The notes under the pieces are model-generated. The model was not told the origin of the DNA. It made no database searches and saw only the letters and a program-made list of their open reading frames with translations. Source: Patescibacteria group bacterium (GTDB lineage: Bacteria > Patescibacteriota > Doudnabacteria > UBA920). From it: a DNA stretch of 64,000 bases. The DNA lies in NCBI GenBank assembly GCA_023484515.1, contig JAMDAY010000019.1, positions 30,483-94,482 of the forward strand, read 5' to 3'. Positions within the stretch are counted from its first letter, which is position 1. Every line of letters begins with the position of its first letter. The translations under genes were made by a program, and so were the position numbers. Shown in pieces: positions 3,475 to 59,208 of this stretch.

Positions 3475-3690
3475 CCAATGTTCGGGAAAATTTTAAGGTC
3501 CGGTATTGACTGATGACATATAAGCTATGGAAAGCAGCCTGATTAAAACCTTCCAAAAAATAGCAAAAGATGCTTACCCTTGAAAATCCGCTTCGGTCTG
3601 CTGATAAACTTCCAGCGGCCGGAAAGACGGGAGAAAAAACCAGGCTGGAAATTGCGGAAGTTTGGGTGTAAAATGGAAGCGTAAGGAAGT

Positions 3691-3758
3691 GTTACCGAAT
3701 GCGCTTTTAAGGCGAAAATTGAAATTTTCAATTTGCGGTTAAAATATCATCCGGTAAC
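3691..3758 (+). repeat. family A repeat element, truncated copy (A4)
   Basis: Shares ccgaatgcgcttttaaggcgaaa with copy A3 and is closed by a gttaccg/cggtaac stem. Confidence 0.55.
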
Positions 3759-4081: not shown

Positions 4082-4145
4082 GGCTAGTTTTTTCAATTTT
4101 AGTCTGCGACTAAAACTTATTTTAGATGCGGTTAATTTTTTTCAG

Positions 4146-4179
4146 CATTTCTTGCACGCTATATAGCGTGCAAGAAATG
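4146..4179. repeat. 34-bp perfect palindrome, family E (CATTTCTTGCACGCTATATAGCGTGCAAGAAATG)
   Basis: Perfect inverted repeat. A near-identical copy sits at 46942-46975. Confidence 0.7.
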
Positions 4180-4186
4180 TTTAAAT

Positions 4187-7575: not shown

Positions 7576-7650
7576 AAAGGGCGTCTTTCCGGGTATGCAG
7601 GCATTAGATTATTAGATGTTATCCATTACAGTAATACTCATTATTCAGTA

Positions 7651-7749
7651 TGAAGGCCGCCCTCTGGGATAATCTGTCTTAAGATTGATAATAGATGATG
7701 ATCATAGACTGATAATCTAAAGTTCGTTATTCCCAGAGGGCGGCCTTCA
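7651..7749. repeat. family B inverted-repeat element, copy B1 (19-bp perfect GC-rich arms TGAAGGCCGCCCTCTGGGA, AT-rich ~60-nt centre)
   Basis: Perfect terminal inverted repeat. Related copies at 15100, 48771 and 50849. A degenerate partial copy sits at 7578-7650. Confidence 0.75.
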
Positions 7750-7769
7750 AAACTCAGGCCTGTTGTAAT

Positions 7770-13127: not shown

Positions 13128-13424
13128 ATTTTTATGTATTTTTAATTCTAAATTTTTGATATTAATAAGATACGATAATTATAACATATAACGGCGGTTG
13201 TTCAAAATTGGGCGCTGCTGGCAGCGAATTCGCCTTTTCGGAAGAGGCCTGTTAATGGCAGGCTGATTATCAACTTTGGGCGACGGTGCCCATCTGGGAC
13301 AATTTTGCTTAAGTTTGGTTGATGATGATTATTATCCGGTAATCTTAAAAACATTTATCCCAGATGGGCACCGTCACTGCCATATACCTTTGCCCTATTT
13401 GGCCAAGGATACCCATCTCACTCC

Positions 13425-14792
13425 CTAATTTTCCCTTAGCCTCCCGAAGCCGATGGAATCCTTAAACACATTAGCAGCCTTAAGCACTGGAGCGCGGCAA
13501 AGGGTAAAGTCCCCGTATTTGGCATTAATTTTGTCCAAGGCCTTAGCCACGCGTTGCTGCCGCTCCACGCCGCCAAACAAACTAAGCTGGCCCGATGCCG
13601 GGCGCAGGCTCCCCACGGTAATGCCGATTAACCTGACCTCCGCGCTTTTTCTGTTTAACTCTTCCCAGATATTCAGCGCTTCTGAAAAAATTTCCTTGCC
13701 TTCGGAAACTGGATAGCCCAGCCTCTTGCTGCGGCCAAAACCCTGACGGCCGTCGTATTCGTAAAAACAAAGCACGCCTCCTTCCAAATTCGCGCGGCGG
13801 AGCCGCGCGGCCACCATCTCGGAGAGCTTGTATAGCACCGGCGCAAAATATTCCGGCTTGCGGAACTCCTTTGGCAAAGTGTACATGTGGCCCATGGATT
13901 TTATATCCTCGTCTTCTTCCACTTCCGGCTTGAACGACCCTTCCAACTGTCCCAAATTGTAAAGATGGTGGCCGGGCAGGCCGAACAAGGCCACCAGCCT
14001 GCTTTTGGGATAATTTTTCAAATCCAGCAAGGTCTTTATTCCCAGCCCGTTCAGCCGTTTTTCCATGCGGCTGCCAATGCCCGGAACGTCGGTAAGCCGC
14101 AACAGATTGTATAGTTGATGTTTTGATAAAAATACGCAGGCGTAACCATTTTTGTCATTTTTATTATTTTTGTCATTTATCACCGCCAGCCCGTCGGGCT
14201 TTTTTAAGTCTGAAGCGATTTTTGCCTGCAGCTTGTTCTCCGCAATGCCTATGGAGCAGGTTAAATAGTCCCCCACTTCGCTGGTTATGCGCCGCTTAAT
14301 TTCTTTTGCGATTTTTACGGCTTCCATGAACGGGTCCGCTTGCGGCATTATTTCTTTACCTAAGATGTAGGTCGGACGCAATAATTTTTGAAATTTTATA
14401 TTTGATATTTGGAATTTATTTGGAAATTGGAAATGGGAAATTGGAATTTTAACATTGCAGCTTGCCGTAACATCCAAGAATACCTCGTCTATGCTGTATC
14501 TTTCCACCTTGTCCGTGTAGTCGCCAACCACCTTAACGAACCGCTGGCTGTAATGCCGGTAGCGGTCAGGGTGAGTTTGGGTCAAAATGATTTTCGGATA
14601 CAGTTTGACCGCTTCCCAAACCGGCGTGCCTGTCTTAATGCCCCATTTTTTGGCCTGCACGCTGGCCGCGATGATAATGCCGCCCAAATGCTCGCACACG
14701 CCCACCGGCTTTCCCCGCCACGCCAAATTCTCCTGCTGCTCAACAGAGGCAAAATAACTATTCATGTCTATGTGCATAATAACGCTTTGCAT
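13425..14792 (-). CDS. dinB: DNA polymerase IV (Y-family, DinB); start moved to MQSVIMHIDMNSYFASVE
   Basis: DMNSYFASVE and SIDEVFLDVT motifs. Contains low-complexity inserts (DKNNKNDKN; FQISNIKFQ). Confidence 0.8.
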   Translation of the reverse strand: MQSVIMHIDMNSYFASVEQQENLAWRGKPVGVCEHLGGIIIAASVQAKKWGIKTGTPVWEAVKLYPKIILTQTHPDRYRHYSQRFVKVVGDYTDKVERYSIDEVFLDVTASCNVKIPISHFQFPNKFQISNIKFQKLLRPTYILGKEIMPQADPFMEAVKIAKEIKRRITSEVGDYLTCSIGIAENKLQAKIASDLKKPDGLAVINDKNNKNDKNGYACVFLSKHQLYNLLRLTDVPGIGSRMEKRLNGLGIKTLLDLKNYPKSRLVALFGLPGHHLYNLGQLEGSFKPEVEEDEDIKSMGHMYTLPKEFRKPEYFAPVLYKLSEMVAARLRRANLEGGVLCFYEYDGRQGFGRSKRLGYPVSEGKEIFSEALNIWEELNRKSAEVRLIGITVGSLRPASGQLSLFGGVERQQRVAKALDKINAKYGDFTLCRAPVLKAANVFKDSIGFGRLREN

Positions 14793-14841
14793 AGCCGCTG
14801 AATTAATGCTGATAGGGACGCTGAATGGACGCTGATGGGGA

Positions 14842-14860
14842 GGGCGGATAGTATCCGCCC
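14842..14860. repeat. family D hairpin GGGCGGATAGTATCCGCCC, copy 1
   Basis: Identical copy at 14918-14936. A copy with longer arms sits inside the transposase gene at 26723-26749. Confidence 0.65.
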
Positions 14861-14917
14861 ATACAAAATGGCAGCGAACTGATATAGGGCGTCTGTGGCG
14901 GATTGGATGGATGTAGG

Positions 14918-14936
14918 GGGCGGATAGTATCCGCCC
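14918..14936. repeat. family D hairpin GGGCGGATAGTATCCGCCC, copy 2
   Basis: See copy 1. Confidence 0.65.
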
Positions 14937-15039
14937 GTACCAAAGATTACCAATGACAATACCAGCCCATTGAGCGGCCCTTTCAGGCGTCATTCCGGAT
15001 ACCCCGACGTTATGTCGGGGTATCCGGAATCTTGTTCTC

Positions 15040-15069
15040 TGAACGCCTCAACCGGCGTTGAGGCGTTCA
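15040..15069. repeat. family C palindrome, copy 2 (perfect 13-bp arms)
   Basis: TGAACGCCTCAACCGGCGTTGAGGCGTTCA. Confidence 0.75.
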
Positions 15070-15099
15070 GCCAACTAACCCAACCGCTCCTACTGGCTA

Positions 15100-15195
15100 T
15101 GAAGGCGCCCTTCCGGGATCAGCCTGCTTAAGTTAGATTAACAATGATCAACATCCAATTATCTAAAGTTAGTTTATCCCGGAAGGGCGCCTTCA
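15100..15195. repeat. family B inverted-repeat element, copy B2 (arms TGAAGGCGCCCTTCCGGGA)
   Basis: 19-bp perfect inverted terminal arms, AT-rich centre with ttagatta..atctaaag. Confidence 0.75.
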
Positions 15196-15393
15196 CAACC
15201 CCATCGCCTCCTTGCGCAATGGGTACCCTTGAGCCCTTTCCGTATATCCGCAGATATCCGTATTCCGTAAAAATTCAGCCTTGCCAAAGCCGAATTTTCT
15301 TGATAAAATAAAGGTATACGAACGTATACCATATTAAAATAATACCCCTTAACAACTATTTCAGTAAAGCCCGGTTATCCACAATAAAAAACG

Positions 15394-15430
15394 CGCCGCA
15401 GTCTAGTAAACCGACTGCGGCGCTTTCCTA
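15394..15430 (-). terminator. terminator hairpin (gcgccgcagtc..gactgcggcgc plus U-run on the minus strand)
   Basis: 11-bp GC stem with an A-run on the plus side, directly after the stop of the 15438-15803 gene. Confidence 0.55.
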
Positions 15431-15437
15431 AAACGAG

Positions 15438-15803
15438 CTACAATGCAGGATCTGCCGAATTCAGCGCTTCTTTAATTCCGGCTTGGAAGGCAGGAATGTT
15501 GAGCTTGGCTATCCGCAGCGTCTCGTATGCCCCTGCTTCCAAGAAACCTTCAATGTCTCCAACGGAGAGGATTGTTCTGGAAATAATGACAACCTTACAG
15601 CGGCCATCTCCCAAGCGGTGCTTGCACTCCCGCACGAATTCCTCCCCCCAACTCTGCCAGACTAACAATAAGTCCGGCGGTTGTTCGCAAAGCTTTTGCA
15701 AAGCGCCGTCTCTCTGTTGGGCATCCCATAAAACAGTGGCGCCCACCTCTTTGAATGCCTTTCTAAACCATAGCCCGTACCAACCGCAAATCCCTACTGT
15801 CAT
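15438..15803 (-). CDS. receiver/flavodoxin-like fold protein lacking the phosphoacceptor Asp (pseudo-receiver), GC-rich
   Basis: PDLLLV-W..KVVIISR..GAYETL parallels receiver topology, but the acidic pocket and Asp are absent. Confidence 0.3.
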   Translation of the reverse strand: MTVGICGWYGLWFRKAFKEVGATVLWDAQQRDGALQKLCEQPPDLLLVWQSWGEEFVRECKHRLGDGRCKVVIISRTILSVGDIEGFLEAGAYETLRIAKLNIPAFQAGIKEALNSADPAL

Positions 15804-16724: not shown

Positions 16725-16891
16725 CTAGAGCTGGTCTCATAACCTGCTTTTAAAGCGAAAATTCAGAATTTCGAGCAGATTGGCGCAAATAAATTTTGAC
16801 GTTTAACTGAAGTTAAGCGGAAAAATTTTTTGCGGCAAGATGCCGAAATTGTGAAATTGCAGCCAAAATGAGGTTATGAGACCAGCTCTAG
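16725..16891 (+). repeat. family A repeat element, copy A1 (~125-nt conserved core flanked by 21-bp copy-specific inverted repeats)
   Basis: Core gcttttaaagcgaaa...cagccaaaatg. Flanks ctagagctggtctcataacct / aggttatgagaccagctctag. Confidence 0.75.
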
Positions 16892-16972: not shown

Positions 16973-17416
16973 TTGCTCGTGCCGGATGGCAATATGTCTT
17001 TTTTTGTGGGCCAGAAATATCATTACAAGAAAAACAAAATATCCGGTCCAAAACTGGTAATAACTAAATAAGGCAAAACCGGTAAAAAGCGAAGTTATGA
17101 GCAGGTCAAAAAACAAATCCAGCAAAAACCAAAAAATCGCCACAAACATTGATTCCAGGAAATTTATTACCCCCAACCGGCGCACTGCGGCCGCAGTGAT
17201 TACCATTACCGCTATCCAATAATAAAAACTGAACAGGGAATTGTTAAAACCCCAGTATTTGAAAAATAACACTTTCAGCGCAATCAGCAGGAACAACTGC
17301 CAGAACGTATAAATTGCCAATTTTTTAAAAGTCATATTAAACTGCCGCTCCTTGAAGAGTTTCTCCCCGGATAAATTTTCTTTAATATGGATTTGATAAT
17401 AATCATCAATCAACAA
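16949..17416 (-). CDS. polytopic membrane hypothetical protein
   Basis: Several TM helices; His-rich C-terminus. Confidence 0.4.
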   Translation of the reverse strand: MLIDDYYQIHIKENLSGEKLFKERQFNMTFKKLAIYTFWQLFLLIALKVLFFKYWGFNNSLFSFYYWIAVMVITAAAVRRLGVINFLESMFVAIFWFLLDLFFDLLITSLFTGFALFSYYQFWTGYFVFLVMIFLAHKKRHIAIRHEQAKHHGHH

Positions 17417-17471
17417 TCTAAAGATCGCTTGCCCCGGAAGAGACCCTTCAAGGAGATGCGCATTAGGTAAA

Positions 17472-18078: not shown

Positions 18079-19086
18079 CTATCTCGTGCTTAAGATGCTT
18101 TTCTTGTAGCTTTCCAAATTATCCAAAGCCACGCCAGTGCCTTTGGCCACGCAGAGCAAGGGATCTTCGGCTACGAAACACGATACGCCTAAACTTTGCG
18201 AAATATAATGGTCCAAATTCCTAAGCAAAGAAGTGCCGCCCGTCATAACCATGCCTTTGTCAATAATGTCGCTGGCCAGCTCCGGCGGCGTTTCCTGCAG
18301 CACGGTCTTAACAGCCTTGACTATTTCCAGCAATTCGTCGTTAATGGCGTCTACCGCCTCGTTAGTGGAAACGGTCACGGTTTTCGGCAGGCCGGTTATC
18401 ATGTCGCGGCCCTTTACTTCCATGACTTCCTCTTCTCCCAGGCGCATGGCGCTGCCAATGGTAATTTTTATCTCTTCGGCCGTCCGGTCGCCAATGGCAA
18501 TACCGTGCCTTCTCCTCATAAAATCTATTACGGCCTGGTCCAGCTTGTTGCCCGCCACCCGCACCGAAGTAGAATTGACAATGCCCCCCAAGGACAATAC
18601 GGCCACGTCAGTCGTGCCGCCGCCAATATCAATGACCAAATTTCCCGAAGCCGAGGCTATGGGAATTCCCGCGCCAATGGCCGCGGCCACGGTTTCCTTA
18701 ATCACATAAGCCGTTTTGGCGCCGGCGGCCTGCGCGGCGTCCACTACGGCGCGGCGTTCCGTGGAAGTAATGCCGCCGGGGACGGAGATCATCACCTCGG
18801 GCCGGAAAAATCGCACGTTACCCAAAGCTTTGTTTATAAAATAACGCAGCATGGCCTCGGTTACGCGGTAGTCGGCTATTACCCCGTCTTTCATGGGCCG
18901 GCTGGCCACTATGGTTTCCGGGGTGCGGCCCAGCATTTCCTTGGCCTCCTGCCCCACTGCCATTACTTTATTGTCATACAGGGAAATGGCTACCACAGTC
19001 GGTTCGTTTATAATAATTCCCCGCTTGGGCAGGTAAACCAAAGTATTTGCCGTGCCTAAATCTATACCGATCTTGTTTTCAAACAT
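18079..19086 (-). CDS. mreB: rod-shape determining protein MreB (ATG start at 19086; the track start at 19101 is a TTG)
   Basis: GIDLGTANT phosphate-1 motif and actin-fold motifs throughout. Confidence 0.9.
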   Translation of the reverse strand: MFENKIGIDLGTANTLVYLPKRGIIINEPTVVAISLYDNKVMAVGQEAKEMLGRTPETIVASRPMKDGVIADYRVTEAMLRYFINKALGNVRFFRPEVMISVPGGITSTERRAVVDAAQAAGAKTAYVIKETVAAAIGAGIPIASASGNLVIDIGGGTTDVAVLSLGGIVNSTSVRVAGNKLDQAVIDFMRRRHGIAIGDRTAEEIKITIGSAMRLGEEEVMEVKGRDMITGLPKTVTVSTNEAVDAINDELLEIVKAVKTVLQETPPELASDIIDKGMVMTGGTSLLRNLDHYISQSLGVSCFVAEDPLLCVAKGTGVALDNLESYKKSILSTR

Positions 19087-19268
19087 ATAGTCCGTTGCCA
19101 ATAAATTTTCAGCTGATTAATCTTGAATACGCGGATTAACCAAATGCGATAGATTTTACTTTTTAACGCTTATCGTTAAAAATTTATTGCCAACGAACTA
19201 ATTATAACAAAAATTACGGTTTCAAGGAATTTGCCAAACCGGGTTAATTTTAGGTATAATAAATTACT

Positions 19269-20570
19269 ATGAGAAAAAGGACCAGATATTTGCTAATTGC
19301 AGCGGGTTTTACCGTTTTCCTAATACTTACCCCGTTAATTCTAATGTATGTGCGGGGAATCAGTTACGATTTTAGCACCCATAAATTCGTCCAGACCGGA
19401 ATTTTAGCCGTCAGGACCGACCCGAAAAATGTTAAGATAATTTTTAACGGCCAAACAAAGCGCAGCAGTTCCGGCGATATAAAATTCCTGAAACCCGGAG
19501 AATATGAAGTGAAAGTCGAAAAAGACGGATATTCCGCCTGGACCAAACGGCTGGCCGTTTATTCCGGACAAGTAACCTGGGCCAATCCGGTCGGCAATAA
19601 GATTTACCTGTTCGCTAAACAGCCTGCGGTTACGGACATCTCTTCCGGCGTCAAGGACTTCTACCTGCAGGACAACGCTTTGTTGTATTTATCCGGGCAA
19701 AATTTAACGGTTTCCAAGGCGGACAACCCGGGAGAAAACCAAAACTACGGATTGCCAAAACCGGCCGATAAAATTTTAGCCGCTCCGAACAATAAAACTT
19801 TTGCGCTTTATTCCGAAACCGCGACATCCGCAACCTCGTCGGTTATGGTTTTTTCCCTGGACGCGGGAAAAGTGACGGACATAAGTAATTTATTTTCCGC
19901 CGCGCCGGTCCTTAATTTTTCCGGGCAGAACGACTTATACGCCCTGGAAAACGGCGCGCTTTATCGCGTGGATTTAAACAAACCCGCGTTGATTCCTATT
20001 TTAACAGGCATTAAGTCCTTTACGTTTTTAGGCGATACCTTATATTTTATCAAGCAGGACGGGCCAAACCTATCCCTTTTTGCAACGCAGAATCCAGGCC
20101 AAGGCACGGACACTTTGCTGCAAAATCTCCCCAATTTCAGCCAAGGGACAATCAAAGTTAATTTTGAAAAACAAGTATTCCTGCTGTTGGACAACAACCT
20201 TTACGAAGTCGGTTCTGACTTGAAAAAAATTGCCGGCAATGTCACTGACTGGCATTTTAACCCGGCCGAATCCACCATGTCGTTCTTGCACTCCGGAGAA
20301 ATGGATTATTACAACCCTTTCCAGAAGGACATAGATTTCATTACCAGAAGCGGCTCCGGCCTTTCCAATCCCCTGGTAAGCCTGGAATTAAATTACGCGT
20401 TTGTGCTTAAGGACAACCAACTGACCGCCATAGAGCTGGACTCGCGCGACCGGCAAAATGAATATGCGCTTTACAGCGCGGCTAACGGCGGCAAATTCGC
20501 GTTGGACACCGCCGCCCAAAACATTTTCCTGCTGGACAACGGCAACCTGAAAAAAATTAAGATTCGCTAA
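19269..20570 (+). CDS. membrane-anchored PEGA-domain protein with a large extracytoplasmic region
   Basis: N-terminal TM; PEGA-like KPGEYEVKVEKDGYSAW. Confidence 0.55.
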   Translation: MRKRTRYLLIAAGFTVFLILTPLILMYVRGISYDFSTHKFVQTGILAVRTDPKNVKIIFNGQTKRSSSGDIKFLKPGEYEVKVEKDGYSAWTKRLAVYSGQVTWANPVGNKIYLFAKQPAVTDISSGVKDFYLQDNALLYLSGQNLTVSKADNPGENQNYGLPKPADKILAAPNNKTFALYSETATSATSSVMVFSLDAGKVTDISNLFSAAPVLNFSGQNDLYALENGALYRVDLNKPALIPILTGIKSFTFLGDTLYFIKQDGPNLSLFATQNPGQGTDTLLQNLPNFSQGTIKVNFEKQVFLLLDNNLYEVGSDLKKIAGNVTDWHFNPAESTMSFLHSGEMDYYNPFQKDIDFITRSGSGLSNPLVSLELNYAFVLKDNQLTAIELDSRDRQNEYALYSAANGGKFALDTAAQNIFLLDNGNLKKIKIR

Positions 20571-20583
20571 AAATATTTTATGT

Positions 20584-20745
20584 GAGGTGGTCTAAAAACT
20601 CGCTTTGTAGGCGAAATTGCAAAATTTCGAGGCAGTTGGGACAAATAAATTTTGATGTTTAGCCGTAGGCTAAGCGGAGAAATTTTTTGGCCCAAATGGC
20701 CGAAATTTTGCAATTGCAGCCCAAATGGAGTTTTTAGACAGCCTC
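20584..20745 (+). repeat. family A repeat element, copy A2
   Basis: Conserved core with 18-bp copy-specific flanking inverted repeats gaggtggtctaaaaactc / gagtttttagacagcctc. Confidence 0.75.
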
Positions 20746-20807
20746 TGTCTATTAAATACTGCATTACGGTCCGGTAATGCAGTGTTTTAAATCTGTGCCA
20801 TCCTCGG

Positions 20808-22972: not shown

Positions 22973-23145
22973 AGGCTAATTTTACCAAATTTAGCCAATA
23001 TAAAAAAGTGCAATCTTATTAATTTTAAGATTGTAAGATTGCGACGAATCGCTGCAAATTATGAGGAACACCTGCTGGGATTATTCATCCGATGACCAAC
23101 GAACATTAGTTGCGGGCTGATAGCTTGGCGAGGACATACGCCTCC

Positions 23146-23174
23146 TGAACGCCTCAACCGCGGTTGAGGCGTTC
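23146..23174. repeat. family C palindrome, copy 3
   Basis: TGAACGCCTCAACCGCGGTTGAGGCGTTC. A second palindrome cggctcaacgcgttgagccg lies ~160 bp downstream. Confidence 0.7.
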
Positions 23175-23414
23175 CCGCCATATAGGCCAGGCGGGTCTGT
23201 AGTTGCCTGATTCATCAGGCCCCTTTGCAAAGCTGAGTGAACTAAGCGACTGCTAGCTTAAGGGACAAGCCATGCTGCTGCGCGAACAATCATGGCAGGC
23301 CGCGACCGCTTGTGATCCGTTCGGCTATCTTTTAACGGCTCAACGCGTTGAGCCGTTGGAAACTATGCTGCCTGGCATTGGCTTTTAAACATTCCATGGG
23401 GTCCTGCAAAATAA

Positions 23415-26479: not shown

Positions 26480-26503
26480 TGCAGGGGCAGGTTTCCAAAC
26501 CTG
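26480..26503. repeat. perfect hairpin palindrome AGGGGCAGGTTTCCAAACCTGCCCCT abutting the 3' end of the transposase gene
   Basis: 11-bp perfect stem, read directly. Confidence 0.6.
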
Positions 26504-26506
26504 CCC

Positions 26507-27010
26507 CTAACGGATAATGGTATTTTTCGGATGATATTTATCCAATTTCCACTTTAAAGGATTGTTGATAATATATTCACGGATTTTATCCAAAGATTCT
26601 TCCTTACGGATAACATGGTCGTAAAAAGATTTGTGCCAAGCGAAATTATTATCCGTAATATGTATTGCTTTAGAAGAAACTCTTTTAAACGATCCTACCA
26701 TTTGTGATATCGACGGCCTCTTGTAGGGGCGGATAATATCCGCCCCTACATCGCCTATTACGATTATGCCATGCACGTGATTCGGCATCACCCTGAACAC
26801 ATCCAAACTTATGCCTTTATAATACTTCGGAATTTCTTTCCAAAACTTTTCCGCGATTTTTCCCCATTCGTTTAAAATCATTTCTCCTTTTATTACCTCG
26901 CCAAAACAACACCGCATATCCTTCGCGCAAACCGTGACAAAATAAAATCCCGGCCGGGAATAGTCGTATTGCTTTAAACGATTTGCTTTCCTTTGCGGCA
27001 ATCCCTCCAT
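26507..27010 (-). CDS. IS200-like Y1 (HUH) transposase / REP-associated tyrosine transposase-like protein
   Basis: HUH motif MPNHVHGIIVI and C-terminal catalytic-Tyr region WHKSFYDHVIRKEESLDKIREYIINNP. A 27-bp perfect palindrome lies inside the CDS at 26723-26749. Confidence 0.65.
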   Translation of the reverse strand: MEGLPQRKANRLKQYDYSRPGFYFVTVCAKDMRCCFGEVIKGEMILNEWGKIAEKFWKEIPKYYKGISLDVFRVMPNHVHGIIVIGDVGADIIRPYKRPSISQMVGSFKRVSSKAIHITDNNFAWHKSFYDHVIRKEESLDKIREYIINNPLKWKLDKYHPKNTIIR

Positions 27011-27707: not shown

Positions 27708-28952
27708 TTAACTCAACGCCTCAATGCCGGGGAGTTTGGCGCCGGCGAGGTATTCCAGCATGGCGCCGCCGCCGGTGGAAACGTGGTCAATATGGTCCAG
27801 TTGGTGGGCCATGCGGACGGCGTCTACGGTTTCCCCGCCGCCGACCACGCCAAAGGCTTTGCGCCTGGAAACCGCGCCGACAATGCGCGCCAAAGCCATG
27901 GTCGCGGTGTGGAAGGGTTTTACCTCAAACAACCCCAGCGGCCCGTTCCAGACAATCGTCCTGGCCAATTTTAATTCCGCGGCGTATTTTAAAATGGTTT
28001 TCGGCCCAATGTCGTAAATTGTTTCGTTCTTCCCTATCTCGTGCGGCCGGGCCACGCGAATGGTGCTGCGGTCCATCTGTTCGTCAGCCACCACCACGTC
28101 CGCGGGCAGCAATATCTTTCCTTTAAAATTCTTTTCCAAATGCCAGGCAATTTTTTCCGCGTCTTTTTCCACTTTAGACTTACCAATTTCATATCCTTTA
28201 GAAAGAAAAAACAAATTAGCCAATCCTCCGGCCAGCAAAATTTTGTCCGCTTTTTCCCCCAAATTTTCTATGGTCTGAACTTTGTCCGAAATTTTAATTC
28301 CGCCCATCATTACCACAAACGGGCTTTGGCTTTTGTGCAGGACAATATCCAATGACTTTATTTCCTTTTCCAAGAGCAGTCCGGCGTAAGAAGGCAAATA
28401 TTTAGTAATGGCCGAGACCGATGCTGCCTGGCGGTGATCCACGCCAAAGGCGTCATTGACATAAACTTCAGCCAGGCCGGCCAATTTCTTGGCGAACATG
28501 GCGTCATTTTCTTCCTCGCCTTTGTAAAACCTGAGATTCTCCAACAATACCACGTCCTTAACCGGCACGCTGTCCAATTGCTTCCTATGCTTGTCTTCCG
28601 CAAAATTGCCGGTATAAAAAATTAAGTGGCTTAATGGGTAGTTCGGCAAGGCGTGGTCGGTTTCTAAAAATTTAAACTGCAAAAGTTCGGCCATTTTTTC
28701 CGCTACCGGCCGCAGACTTAAGCTTTTGTCAGGCTTGCCGCCGGGCCTGCCCAAGTGGCCGCATAAGACTACCCGATTATTGCCCTTTTGCAGATATTTG
28801 ATTGTCGGCACAATTTCCTCAATGCGAAAAGCGTCCGCCACTTTGCCGGTTTGTTTGTCTATAGGCACATTCACGTCAACGCGCACCAACGCTGTCTTAT
28901 TTTGAATTTTTGACGTTCGCAAATATTTGATTGCCACAAAAATAATGAGCAA
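27708..28952 (-). CDS. pgk: phosphoglycerate kinase
   Basis: LVRVDVNVPI N-terminal motif and the C-terminal GGGA...G motif. Confidence 0.9.
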   Translation of the reverse strand: MLIIFVAIKYLRTSKIQNKTALVRVDVNVPIDKQTGKVADAFRIEEIVPTIKYLQKGNNRVVLCGHLGRPGGKPDKSLSLRPVAEKMAELLQFKFLETDHALPNYPLSHLIFYTGNFAEDKHRKQLDSVPVKDVVLLENLRFYKGEEENDAMFAKKLAGLAEVYVNDAFGVDHRQAASVSAITKYLPSYAGLLLEKEIKSLDIVLHKSQSPFVVMMGGIKISDKVQTIENLGEKADKILLAGGLANLFFLSKGYEIGKSKVEKDAEKIAWHLEKNFKGKILLPADVVVADEQMDRSTIRVARPHEIGKNETIYDIGPKTILKYAAELKLARTIVWNGPLGLFEVKPFHTATMALARIVGAVSRRKAFGVVGGGETVDAVRMAHQLDHIDHVSTGGGAMLEYLAGAKLPGIEALS

Positions 28953-28983
28953 AAATTAACAAACTTGACAAAAATGAACAAAA

Positions 28984-38660: not shown

Positions 38661-38784
38661 GCCGATAACTGCAAAATTACGCAGATATTTACGCGTATAA
38701 ATTAAGTTTGCCTATTTTTATTTCAGGATTCGCTTTTGAATACTATAATTTTGTCAATTTTGCTTAATTTTGTCAATTTTGTCA

Positions 38785-40383: not shown

Positions 40384-40859
40384 TTTTTGATATCTAATAA
40401 TTCATGAATAGCCAATACATTATAGCATAAATATAAATTTTATAATATTGCAAAGTTTGCCAAAAATAATAAAAATCCAAAGAATATGCAAGAAAGGAGC
40501 AGGAGGATGCTAAAGGCCGCGCTTTATTATGAAGCCCGCAGCCATAATCGGCGGACTAATTGTCATGCTTGTGGTTGGGATTTTTTCCCTCAAATACGAA
40601 GTCCGCAATGAATGAAACAAGAGGGCTCGCCGCCAAAACACACTTACCCAAAGCCGCGAGCCTCTACACTTATTATGGCCTTATGTGCTTGGAAGCGATT
40701 ACCTCTCCCCATTCAGGGACTAAGAATTACAAAAGGCGGCCTCCGGGACAAGCAAGCTTCAGATCGCAAAGCGCTGACCGCCATTCGCCTATCTTAAGGC
40801 GGGCGATCCCGGAAGGAGCCCTTCATCTGCGGCATTGATTAACAACCAATTTATTTAAC

Positions 40860-41021
40860 GGGTCTGTTGCCGAATGCGCTTTTAAGGCGAAATTTCAGAA
40901 TTCCGAACAGATTGGCCAAAATAATTTTTGATGTTTAGCCGCAGGCTAAGAAGAAAAAATTTTTTGGCCAGGATGCCGAAATTCTGAAATTGCAGCCAAA
41001 ATGGCATTTGGCAACAGACCC
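40860..41021 (+). repeat. family A repeat element, copy A3
   Basis: Conserved core with flanking inverted repeats gggtctgttgccgaatgc / gcatttggcaacagaccc. Confidence 0.75.
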
Positions 41022-41083
41022 TTAACAGTCCCAAAAACCGTCCCCCACAATGCGGGGACGGTTTTTGGTTGAAATTAAATAAT

Positions 41084-46941: not shown

Positions 46942-46975
46942 CATTTCTTGCATGCTATATAGCATGCAACAAATG
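46942..46975. repeat. family E palindrome, copy 2 (CATTTCTTGCATGCTATATAGCATGCAAcAAATG)
   Basis: Near-identical to 4146-4179. Confidence 0.7.
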
Positions 46976-48727: not shown

Positions 48728-48754
48728 GAACGCCACAACACGTGTTGAGGCGTT
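48728..48754. repeat. family C palindrome, copy 4 (one arm mismatch)
   Basis: GAACGCCaCAACACGTGTTGAGGCGTT. Confidence 0.6.
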
Positions 48755-48770
48755 GGGATTTTTGGCAGTA

Positions 48771-48862
48771 AAGACGCCCTTCCGGGACCAGCCTTTTAAA
48801 GTCAGATTAATTATGATTAATATCTGATAATCTAAAGTTTGTATATACCGGAAGACCGTCTT
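48771..48862. repeat. family B inverted-repeat element, copy B3 (arms 13/15 matched)
   Basis: aagacgcccttccgg ... ccggaagaccgtctt with an AT-rich centre containing gataatctaaag. Confidence 0.6.
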
Positions 48863-49006
48863 CACCCCGGAGACGCCGGCTTTGGCTATTTTTGCCGGGA
48901 TGGACCGCGACCGACGCGGCCCGCACTACATTTGATGCATGAATAAAAGCGGCCAGTGGCCGCTTTTGAAATCTTTTAATCTTTCAATTTTCAATTCTTA
49001 AATTTG

Positions 49007-50732: not shown

Positions 50733-50848
50733 ATATATTTTGCTAGAACTTTAGGGAATACGGATCCGTCAGCCGCGTAAATTCATCCTGCGTGGCTATC
50801 TGGCGGAGTACGAATATACGGATGTAGAATCCTTGATCCTTTCCGGCA

Positions 50849-50945
50849 GTGAAGGCGCCCTTCCGGGATAAGTGATTTTAAATTGTTAGATGTTGATTAC
50901 TATCAAACTTACTTTAGAAGGCTTGTTCCGGAAGGGCGCCTTCAC
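50849..50945. repeat. family B inverted-repeat element, copy B4, in the rpsE-rplO spacer where rpmD (L30) normally sits
   Basis: 18-bp perfect arms GTGAAGGCGCCCTTCCGG. Confidence 0.75.
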
Positions 50946-50989
50946 CCTCTATCCGTATATCCGTATTAATCCGTATTCCGTAAAAATAA

Positions 50990-52986: not shown

Positions 52987-53091
52987 AAGATTAATTGAAC
53001 AAAAATTAAAAAAATTAAATAAATGACAAAAATAAGGATTCTTTATTGTTTTTATTATTTTTGTTCACTTTTGCCATTTTTGTCATTATTG

Positions 53092-53286
53092 TTACCAAGA
53101 AGCCTTCACCACTCCCGGAATTTCTCCCCTGCTGGCCAGTTCCCTAAAACAGATCCTGCACAAATTAAAGTCCCGCATGTAACCGGCTTTCCTGCCGCAC
53201 TTCCAACACCGCCTGATCTTCCTGGTGGAAAATTTGGGATTCTTTAAGCTTCTCTTGGCTTTTGCAATATGCGCTTGTGTGGCCAT
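53092..53286 (-). CDS. rpsN: 30S ribosomal protein S14 type Z (zinc-binding); start moved to [11 protein letters not shown]
   Basis: [38 protein letters not shown]. Confidence 0.85.
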
Positions 53287-54328: not shown

Positions 54329-54431
54329 AAAATTACATTTAACTATCTCTTTACGGAATATGGACTTTTGCGGATATACGGATTCCGGAGATCCTTTCCG
54401 TATATTCGTATTAATCCGTATTCCGTAAAGC

Positions 54432-54824
54432 TTAAATTACTTCCGGAGCCAGGGAAATTATTTTTTTAAAACCGTCCTCAAACTGGCCTTTGGCCCTTTC
54501 GCGGATCTCTCTGGGGACCGGGCCGAAAATGCGCGTGCCGCGCGGCTCACCGCTCTCTTTGTTCACCAATACGCCGGCATTGTCGTCAAACCTGATGTAA
54601 GAGCCGTCCTTGCGGCGCATTTCCTTGCGGGTCCGGACAATAACCGCATAAATCTTGTCGCCTTTTTTTAAGGCGGAATTCGGGGCGGCCTGCTTGACCG
54701 AGCCGGCTACAATGTCGCCGACCCGCGCAAACCGGTTGCTGTTCTTGCTGTTCACGGAAAAAACATTGACGACCTTTGCGCCGGTATTATCCGCTATTTT
54801 AATCCACGATCTTACTTGTAACAT
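54432..54824 (-). CDS. rplN: 50S ribosomal protein L14
   Basis: KIADNTGAK...IISLAPEVI. Confidence 0.9.
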
Positions 54825-58747: not shown

Positions 58748-58845
58748 AAAAATTATTGAACAAAAGTTAAAAAATTGGCAAAATTGACAAAAGTTTATTG
58801 CATCCTAATTTTATTATTTTTGTCAATTTTGTTCATTTTTGTCAT

Positions 58846-59208
58846 TTAAATTGTCTCTGTCGCCCCTTCTATCTTGTCTCCCTGTTTTAGGGTTACGACC
58901 GCTTTTTTAAAACCGGAAGTTGTGCCGCTAATCCTGCCGTAATTCCTGGCCTTGCCTTTGTTGTTTATTACGTTCACCTGCGTCACCCTGACTTTATAAA
59001 CGCCTTCCACCGCTTTCTTGATTAAAATCTTATTGGCTTCTTTGCGGACCAAAAAAACGTACTTATTGCCTTGCACCAAATGGCTGGCTTTTTCCGAAAC
59101 CCTGGGCTGCACCAAAATTCCGCCAAAAGCGGCAGCCGGTTTTCCCGCGCCGCGCTTTACGGACTGCTGATTCCCCGCTTCTTCTTCTTTTTTGCTGAAT
59201 ATGGCCAT
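58846..59208 (-). CDS. rplW: 50S ribosomal protein L23 (N-terminal extension)
   Basis: L23 core; position in the operon. Confidence 0.85.
   Translation of the reverse strand: MAIFSKKEEEAGNQQSVKRGAGKPAAAFGGILVQPRVSEKASHLVQGNKYVFLVRKEANKILIKKAVEGVYKVRVTQVNVINNKGKARNYGRISGTTSGFKKAVVTLKQGDKIEGATETI

Follow-up and report, generated by a model that had tools for sequence, protein, structure and literature searches.

Repetitive palindromes at the dinB locus

Bacterial interspersed mosaic elements (BIMEs) of Escherichia coli are made of a single superfamily of repetitive extragenic palindromes (REPs) in alternating orientation, joined by a small set of defined linkers and recurring many times, and are bound by IHF, DNA gyrase, or Pol I. 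In Bacillus, the chromosomal palindromic sites NBS and ram, which have fixed spacing and often lie within genes, are bound by the membrane- or pole-associated proteins Noc and RacA, respectively. The naturally competent Neisseria carry thousands of DNA uptake sequences (DUS) per genome, found as inverted pairs after genes, together with Correia elements, which resemble miniature inverted-repeat transposable elements (MITEs). Bacteria of the candidate phyla radiation (CPR) have tiny genomes and few regulators, and to our knowledge almost no cis-elements have been defined experimentally in them. Here, we analyzed a 64-kb stretch of DNA (referred to as the window) from a Patescibacteria (CPR) genome, part of a 102-kb contig (102,175 nt), and describe the palindromic elements that crowd the spacer upstream of dinB, the gene for DNA polymerase IV (Pol IV), namely families B, C, and D and a unique 39-nt hairpin. 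The standard with which families D and B were compared is the system formed by REPs, or by REP doublets forming hairpins (REPINs), and a REP-associated tyrosine transposase (RAYT) (PMC3116915, PMC3337134).

The explanation that best accounts for our results, at a probability of roughly 0.6, is that the dinB leader has been enlarged by independent insertions of four unrelated palindromic families and that one of these, family C, is a site recognized by a winged helix-turn-helix (wHTH) protein. The spacer would be a permissive leader, enlarged about threefold by independently inserted REPs of the resident RAYT (family D), one orphan hairpin, the REPIN-like family B in one orientation, and one copy of C. 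The C copies of the window belong to a locally amplified subfamily of a CPR-wide hairpin, built of a lower stem AA-NNN-CTCA(AC), a variable tip, and the mirror arm, whose usual place is just downstream of a gene for a wHTH protein with a transmembrane helix (TM-wHTH) and, in many cases, right in front of the promoter of a TM-less paralogue. One or both of these winged-helix proteins may recognize the conserved stem, either as duplex half-sites or as an extruded hairpin, and the site may have been copied to other intergenic positions, in which case the dispersed copies, including the one in the dinB leader, would be extra binding sites. The elements of the dinB locus are as follows (R1 is a covariance model trained solely on wHTH-linked hairpins of other genomes, without window sequence).

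13425-14792, minus strand: dinB (NCBIfam DNA polymerase IV matches; publicly annotated as 455 aa, P0001)
14796-14841: 23-nt tandem direct repeat, two copies, directly upstream of the dinB start
14834-14868, plus strand: family D copy 1, hairpin GGGCGGATAGTATCCGCCC at 14842-14860 (RNA fold -14.5 kcal/mol, z -4.1)
14910-14944, plus strand: family D copy 2, GTAG-G-GGGCGGATAGTATCCGCCC-GTAC, hairpin at 14918-14936
14992-15030: 39-nt hairpin whose 17-bp stem is perfectly paired around a 5-nt loop (fold -33.8 kcal/mol, z -8.4)
15036-15073: family C copy, TGAACGCCTCAACCGGCGTTGAGGCGTTCA core at 15040-15069 (R1 38.1 bits, E 8e-9; fold -26.6 kcal/mol)
15095-15200, plus strand: family B, a REPIN/MITE-like long hairpin (fold -57.6 kcal/mol, z -9.5)
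15313-15330, minus strand: GGTATACGTTCGTATACC, a Cheo/LexA-like box (GTRWAC-N4-GTWYAC), also at the dinB promoter of both syntenic relatives
15339-15368, minus strand: sigma-70-like promoter TTTACT-18-TATTAT, the sole such match on the dinB strand in the spacer
15390-15426, minus strand: canonical intrinsic terminator of the upstream gene 15438-15803 (minus strand), consisting of inverted repeat I5 followed by a minus-strand T run

The elements that a preliminary description of this DNA had listed in the spacer are all present, at 14842, 14918, 14992-15030, 15040-15069, and 15095-15200, and they belong to genuine, nonrandom families: dinucleotide shuffles of the window, which we used to obtain the chance expectation for each motif, predict 0.00-0.01 occurrences per motif compared with the 4-6 observed. 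Further, all five C copies and all seven B copies of the window are intergenic, although intergenic DNA makes up only 18% of it. With counts above those of the shuffles and with this intergenic bias, the motifs are not explained by the composition of the DNA or by placement in coding regions without positional preference. No family in Rfam 15 matched in the window at gathering score, and relaxed E-values over 14700-15500 returned noise only.

The spacer between dinB, whose MHIDMNSYFASVEQ start is at 14777, and the gene upstream of it (14778-15437) is 660 nt long, compared with 172 nt in L120 and 274 nt in L121, the two nearest syntenic relatives recovered. Their DinB proteins are 68% (L120) and 63% (L121) identical to that of the window, and all three loci have the gene order iPGM-recJ-RNaseH-x-mreB-...-dinB-x-histidine kinase-response regulator in common. 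The iPGM-recJ spacer, which in the window holds two C copies, measures 442 nt in the window, 147 nt in L120, and 157 nt in L121. Neither C, B, and D elements nor the 39-nt hairpin are found in L120 or L121, in which R1 yields a single weak terminator-like match, located elsewhere in these loci. The sole other assembly of the dinB region, Logan contig L001, is identical to the window sequence. The DinB (P0001) and RAYT (P0121) proteins of the 102-kb contig are 100% identical to those encoded in the window.

What the relatives do have in common with the window is a -10-like hexamer and, after it, the box GGT(G/A)(A/T)AC-N4-GT(A/T)TACC (8974-8989 in L120 and 9845-9860 in L121), and the pattern GTRWAC-N4-GTWYAC matches only at these three dinB promoters and in two other loci. 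In form, the box resembles a LexA operator of the Gram-positive type (GAAC-N4-GTTC-like); the 64-kb window showed no lexA gene. Because the conserved promoter and box are distal to all of the repeats, the repeats appear to separate the dinB ATG from the ancestral promoter/LexA-type operator. Judging from the consensus matches and the two relatives, dinB probably has a leader of ~550 nt that contains all of the repeats, and a predicted leader of this length, full of very stable hairpins, could affect expression of the error-prone polymerase.

We also noted that the DinB ORF (open reading frame, 13425-14993) matches the family models in two stretches, residues 71-178 and 222-511, which implies an insertion of ~45 residues compared with typical Pol IV. 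In L121, a diversity-generating-retroelement-like pair (bAvd/23S_rRNA_IVP and reverse transcriptase) is located at 18353-20475, ~7 kb from dinB.

The family C hairpin and a linked winged-helix gene

In addition to the copy upstream of dinB, the window contains the following C copies.

1606-1643: family C copy (R1 E 1e-7); an A.C mismatch on the plus strand is G.U on the gene strand
23142-23179: family C copy upstream of recJ (R1 E 3e-6)
23328-23363: canonical CPR-type C copy AACGGCTCAACGCGTTGAGCCGTT (23334-23357), the best R1 match (E 4e-10), 57 nt downstream of the iPGM stop codon
48723-48760: degenerate family C copy, 12 nt left of a B copy (R1 E 0.003)

R1 finds exactly these five sites in the window, and its next match has an E-value of 0.08. 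The copy at 15040 represents a local AACGCC/GGCGTT variant with a 4-nt center, and the window subfamily has the form TGAACGCCTCAAC-N4-GTTGAGGCGTTCA. The preliminary description had given four copies with perfectly conserved arms, the last of them at 48728. The arms in fact carry 1, 0, 1, and 3 mismatches in 26 bases at 1610, 15040, 23146, and 48727 (where the fourth copy begins), respectively, and a fifth copy, the one at 23334-23357, which differs by a compensated G/C swap (AACGGC/GCCGTT), had been missed.

Across CPR lineages, the hairpin takes the form AACGGCTCAAC-N2-6-GTTGAGCCGTT. A scan of 185,579 species genomes with the pattern AACGSCTCAAC-N0-6-GTTGAGSCGTT, all counts from which are lower bounds, gave at least 127 exact copies in at least 118 loci. 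At least ~100 of these loci are labeled CPR and come from Saccharibacteria, Paceibacterota, and Taylor-, Woese-, Doudna-, Kaiser-, Lipton-, Staskawicz-, Specht-, Yanofsky-, Wolfe-, and Zambryskii-bacteria. A search of the literature by sequence string and topic returned nothing on the C motif in CPR, and the hairpin is apparently undescribed so far. The non-CPR matches, which are mostly of the GCC variant with nonpalindromic loops and are followed by T runs in 11 of 13 cases, are ordinary terminators.

Among the matches listed, ~80% of the CPR copies are intergenic, against a coding density of 85% in these loci. The spacers that hold them are tandem in 41 cases, convergent in 16, and divergent in 13 (background 70, 14, and 16%), which reveals no strong preference: convergent spacers account for 23% (14-16% in the background), and the divergent share of 19% is the same as background. 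These spacers are longer than others (median 241 nt vs 114 nt), and about half of the copies between same-strand genes lie within 50 nt of the stop codon of the upstream gene. Flanking bases prolong the palindrome, with at least three extra pairs in 41% of the copies compared with 2% in the null, and copies within one genome have their center type in common (for example, CGATCG in 8 of the 9 copies of one Saccharibacterium).

Other candidate explanations were discarded. A phage origin was rejected because C has 0 matches in 2.9 million viral contigs, and a gene regulon because, apart from the wHTH gene, the nearest genes in the 118 listed loci belong to housekeeping families. The notion that AACGG|CCGTT represents the "empty site" failed because the excess of ACGGCCGT derives from a single Anaerolineae contig. 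An uptake-sequence-like role was dismissed because the lone 8-mer AACGGCTC, counted outside palindromes, is barely enriched (46 occurrences vs ~25 expected in 828 kb). Words resembling those of integron attC sites (RYYYAAC/GTTRRRY) are found at the tip of the C hairpin; in attC itself, they are at the outer ends.

The exception among the neighbors encodes a wHTH protein of ~97 aa in which an N-terminal membrane helix precedes a C-terminal winged helix (Pfam HTH_24/DeoR-like). This TM-wHTH gene is directly upstream of C in ~10 of the ~105 CPR loci among the matches listed, and the hairpin is always just 3' of it. For the reciprocal comparison, we took 80 metagenome loci picked by the TM-wHTH protein alone, 75 of which had enough flanking sequence. 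As a palindrome with no more than two mismatches, the hairpin is found 2-223 nt past the stop codon in 32 of the 75 loci and, when covarying and long-tip forms are counted, 2-225 nt downstream of the gene in at least 61 of them. Most of the loci beyond the 32 carry the hairpin with compensated stem variants (AATAAC/GTTATT, AATGGC/GCCATT, AACACC/GGTGTT, or ATTAAC/GTTAAT), in some cases with a long apical extension. In an alignment of 50 unique hairpins (A4), A7, CTCA, TGAG, and T33 are invariant, and stem positions 8-11 and the outer flank covary, with 161 double-sided changes compared with 68 in shuffles. The covariation score of 0.378 compares with 0.154 in shuffles (none of 500 reached 0.378) and at most 0.115 in slid control alignments. 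Pairs of the G.U type are rare and, on the sense strand of the wHTH gene, number 11 compared with 26 A.C mismatches, which argues against a hairpin in the sense-strand RNA. An Rfam search over 20 wHTH loci detected tRNAs only.

Of the 80 loci, ~35 encode a second, TM-less wHTH paralogue 300-750 nt downstream; one clade has a TATAAT/TAGAAT hexamer ~23 nt beyond the end of the hairpin, and the ATG of the paralogue follows immediately. No neighbor of the wHTH module besides the paralogue is conserved in the sampled loci. Further, the variable stem triplet tracks a residue of the recognition helix: CGG occurs with ...ATATRY (~25 loci) and TAA, TGG, or CAC with ...ATAERY (~22 loci), with three exceptions to this pairing. 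At 90% identity, the wHTH family forms more than 1000 clusters, the annotations of which are limited to "winged helix-turn-helix transcriptional regulator" and "DUF977 family protein" (Parcubacteria, Campbellbacteria, and Pacebacteria), and a profile search against the PDB returned generic MarR/CRP-type winged helices only. The hairpin (24-36 nt) and this protein family represent a concrete and testable candidate protein-DNA pair in CPR, where handles of this kind are rare and a few Saccharibacteria can be cultivated.

Several further features of C loci were noted. In one wHTH clade (L152, L155, L161, L169, L187, and L200), the lower stem AAACGGCTCA/TGAGCCGTTT is kept, and apical extensions range from 8 to ~90 nt. 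Among L017, L019, L058, and L103, we noted that two or three tandem AACGGCTC 8-mers precede the left arm of the hairpin in one Patescibacteria genome and that L019, a 2-kb contig binned as Omnitrophota, displays the mirror image of this arrangement. L020, which is binned as Thermodesulfobacteriota, carries the CPR wHTH pair, and both L019 and L020 are probably mis-binned.

Weighing the explanations for family C

The preliminary description had proposed that C is a protein-recognized site and had named the Y1 transposase as a possible partner. The first proposal is supported by the invariant CTCA/TGAG core, the covarying flanks, and the conservation across CPR; the partner it suggested fits D and not C, for which the wHTH protein is the candidate. 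Like the operators of wHTH regulators of the MarR, DeoR, and IclR types, C is an inverted repeat that adjoins a regulator gene and is located just upstream of the -10 element of the paralogue, with half-site bases that change symmetrically and track a recognition-helix residue. It differs from them in its arm spacing of 2 to >20 nt, its palindromic tips and flanks, its tens of dispersed copies lacking a common regulon, and the N-terminal membrane helix of the regulator. Tens of scattered conserved palindromes and a membrane-attached candidate binder are also reminiscent of Noc-NBS and RacA-ram, but the candidate wHTH protein is not homologous to ParB/Noc or RacA. With the Neisseria repeats, our elements have in common a short conserved word that follows genes as inverted pairs, in bacteria with natural competence and reduced genomes, and MITE-like elements in promoter-proximal leaders; the density of C, however, is tens and not thousands per genome, and the lone AACGGCTC word is barely over-represented. 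A further proposal, which we put forward tentatively and regard as possible rather than probable, is that C is the genomic recognition site of a CPR-specific membrane-anchored wHTH protein and its soluble paralogue. In this hitherto unrecognized system, a conserved stem that can be read as a hairpin or as inverted half-sites would be copied around the chromosome and act as a "mobile operator" common to CPR lineages, tethering or regulating many loci, including the dinB leader.

Several observations weigh against the explanation that we prefer. No homologue of TM-wHTH is encoded in the 64-kb window or the adjoining 6 kb (contig L125), together about 10% of the genome. We found no target-site duplication, transposase, or empty-site comparison that would show how the C copies spread. 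The pairing of stem triplet with recognition helix is confounded by phylogeny, since in essence it tells two clades apart, and the assignment of the dinB promoter is based on consensus matches and two relatives only. The arms are 2-6 nt apart but in certain lineages up to >20 nt, which does not sit easily with a rigid dimer bound to duplex DNA; taken together with the palindromic tips and flanks, this variable spacing favors recognition of the stem, as a hairpin or as independent half-sites, over binding by a rigid dimer. Lastly, two C copies adjoin a B copy, which under random intergenic placement has a probability (two or more) of 0.038, and an insertion-site preference is a possible cause.

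This adjacency is also a point in favor of the reading given in the preliminary description, according to which C, D, B, and the extra hairpin form a recurring BIME-like composite of defined order and spacing, bound by nucleoid proteins or the Y1 transposase. Several palindromic units indeed crowd one spacer, and a short CCGTATATCCG-type repeat follows B twice. As in E. coli, the palindromic units share a spacer, REP-like units (D) and a RAYT gene are found in the same genome, and C and B are extragenic. However, unlike in BIMEs, the units belong to four unrelated families, the two D copies point the same way, the arrangement is one of a kind, and the spacings differ. The order D-D-hairpin-C-B occurs once in the 70 kb of the source genome examined (the window and its 6.2-kb left neighbor L125), and three of the five C copies and five of the seven B copies have no such partner. 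The statement that C lies 30-50 bp to the left of B holds for two of the five C copies as far as adjacency is concerned. The edge-to-edge gaps are 30 nt (15069 to 15100) and 12 nt (48756 to 48769), or 60 and 42 nt from start to start, so the spacing is not conserved. The families differ in their history and taxonomic range (C across CPR, B in this genome, D tied to the RAYT), and the syntenic relatives have none of the elements. We therefore regard a fixed composite as most unlikely. That C is a REP mobilized by the resident RAYT, which would recognize the hairpin as single-stranded DNA, is also very unlikely. The window does contain a RAYT gene, and C is a multicopy intergenic hairpin with genome-specific subfamilies, but C has no GTAG foot, over 52 kb flanks neither the RAYT of the window nor any of three homologues, and occurs in 118 listed loci in which tblastn detects no RAYT. 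Further, the window RAYT family is found in many non-CPR phyla, C is nearly confined to CPR, and the hairpins that flank RAYT genes are of the D type.

An RNA-level role, in which C would be a hairpin at the 3' end, serving to terminate transcription or to protect mRNA, and would be kept as the end of the wHTH gene, the dispersed copies being ordinary terminators, would be in keeping with its stable folds, its frequent location within 50 nt of an upstream stop codon, the mild enrichment in convergent spacers, and the classic terminators among the non-CPR GCC-variant matches. We consider it unlikely because a T run follows only 24% of the CPR copies, compared with 16.5% of random positions, and none of the window copies, and because the share of copies between divergent genes is that of the background. 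Moreover, the copies at 15040 and 48727 each come after a canonical terminator, termination does not need an invariant CTCA/TGAG core, and G.U pairs are rarer than A.C on the wHTH sense strand. Nor is C likely to be a purely selfish miniature palindrome lacking a host partner, its position after wHTH genes being an old inherited insertion. The genome-specific subfamilies, the absence from the syntenic relatives, the longer spacers, and the variable gene neighbors are what such an element would produce. Set against these are the occupancy (at least 80%) by the hairpin of one position beside one gene family in distant CPR lineages, the invariant core and compensated stem changes, the correlation with the recognition helix, and the lack of matches among the viral contigs. 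Finally, we give almost no credence to C being the SOS (LexA) operator of dinB. The GAAC...GTTC ends of a C copy upstream of dinB, and the further copies that precede recJ and a NUDIX gene, would be suggestive of this, but every spacer here is both upstream and downstream of some gene, and in other genomes C has all sorts of housekeeping genes as neighbors. The box at 15313-15330 is a far better match to the LexA type and is kept in the relatives, whose dinB promoters have no C.

Family D and the resident RAYT, family B, and other repeats

The window genes, nearly all of which are on the minus strand, include the following RAYT gene.

26507-27010, minus strand: RAYT-like Y1 transposase gene (Pfam Y1_Tnp E 8.7e-6; protein P0121), homologues of which carry the public name "REP element-mobilizing transposase RayT"

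The two D copies upstream of dinB are 35-nt direct repeats, 76 nt apart and in the same orientation. The second has a GTAG foot at 14913 (GTAG-G-GGGCGG...CCGCCC), in place of which the copy at 14842 has GGGGA. The two hairpins had been correctly described, but a third D-type palindrome, GTAG-GGGCGGATATTATCCGCCC-CTAC at 26722-26750, had been overlooked; it lies inside the RAYT ORF and codes for the hypervariable loop that directly follows the HVH motif (alignment A2). A related hairpin (26483-26508) overlaps the RAYT stop codon. In L122, a RAYT homologue (P0126) that is 54% identical to that of the window carries the near-identical D hairpin AGGCGGATGATATCCGCCC-CTAC in three places: 41 nt upstream of the start, in the loop as an inverted doublet GTAG-hairpin...hairpin-CTAC, and across the stop codon. 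In L124, GTAG and a hairpin follow the RAYT gene. With the GTAG foot and the hairpins around and inside RAYT genes, D has the sequence features and the linkage by which REPs are defined (PMC3116915, PMC3337134), and its hairpins resemble REPs belonging to the resident RAYT. Separately, we noted that REP/REPIN sequences (GTAG-hairpin-CTAC) occur in frame inside the RAYT genes of both the window (26722-26750) and L122 (2285-2345) and that the loop after the HUH motif varies greatly in length among homologues (alignment A2).

The likeness to REP/REPIN-RAYT systems extends to the GTAG foot with a GC-rich hairpin, the single RAYT gene flanked by near-identical hairpins, the inverted doublet of P0126, and the architecture of B, in which two inverted REP-like units form a long hairpin. 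On the other hand, D has three copies within 64 kb (REP systems have tens to hundreds in a whole genome), the pair upstream of dinB is direct, and the reading frame of the RAYT itself contains D palindromes. For B, there is neither a GTAG foot nor a demonstrated link to the RAYT, and C lacks the features of REPs altogether. The D and B elements indicate that both REP/RAYT systems, in which REPs occur even within the RAYT gene itself, and REPIN-like elements are at work in CPR.

The preliminary description had given three copies of family B, but the window holds seven, the one upstream of dinB and the following six.

7640-7755, plus strand: family B copy
13272-13382, plus strand: family B copy, downstream of dinB
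17343-17456, plus strand: family B copy
40717-40830, plus strand: family B copy
48756-48872, plus strand: family B copy
50838-50950, plus strand: family B copy, inside a ribosomal-protein operon

The copies are ~100 nt long, and in all seven the plus strand scores higher. At 15095-15200, 20-nt inverted arms (15100-15119 and 15176-15195) are separated by a 56-nt spacer, and each arm holds its own mini-palindrome, GAAGG-CGC-CCTTC, which is indicative of a REPIN-like architecture. The arms (~21 bp) covary, with double-sided changes at 15 of the 29 pairs predicted by RNAalifold. B was not found in the other CPR loci examined and was seen in this genome alone, in which two further copies terminate the neighboring Logan contig L125. 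L125, which extends the window by 6.2 kb to the left, starts at a distance of ~60 nt from the C copy at 1610, and its other end falls within two adjacent B copies. That a Logan contig ends at B copies suggests that these repeats break short-read assemblies.

The 39-nt hairpin has no second copy in the window or in the 205 fetched loci. Its outer arms, CCGGATA/TATCCGG, are similar to the D stem. The word CGGATA/TATCCG occurs in this hairpin, in family D, and in the following short repeat.

15236-15274, plus strand: short repeat CTTTCCGTATATCCG...CCGTAAAAAT (family D11), three window copies, one of which abuts B at 50949

The copies of this CCGTATATCCG...CCGTAAAAAT repeat are at 15236-15274, 50949-50987, and 54394-54432, with further sequence of this kind at 50756-50835; the B copy at 50850 is flanked by inverted copies of the CCGTATATCCG type, one of which ends in GTAG.

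Three other kinds of repeats were seen in the window. A family of ~146 nt has three or four copies (16744-16889, 20601-20746, and 40877-41022, and also 3690-3727), has no Rfam match, and in one case is located ~40 nt right of the B copy at 40717-40830. A perfect palindrome of 34-38 nt, AGCATTTCTTGCA(C/T)GCTATATAGC(G/A)TGCAAGAAATGTT, has two spacer copies (4144-4181 and 46942-46975), and a compensated change distinguishes their arms. Tandem arrays with units of 9-10 nt, such as TTTTGTCAA, TTTTGTCAT, and AATGAACAAA, are located at 38747-38784, 53049-53092, 58807-58847, 14147-14178, and 28944-28983, and such arrays fill many spacers, including the unusually long gaps (~50-290 nt) between ribosomal-protein genes.

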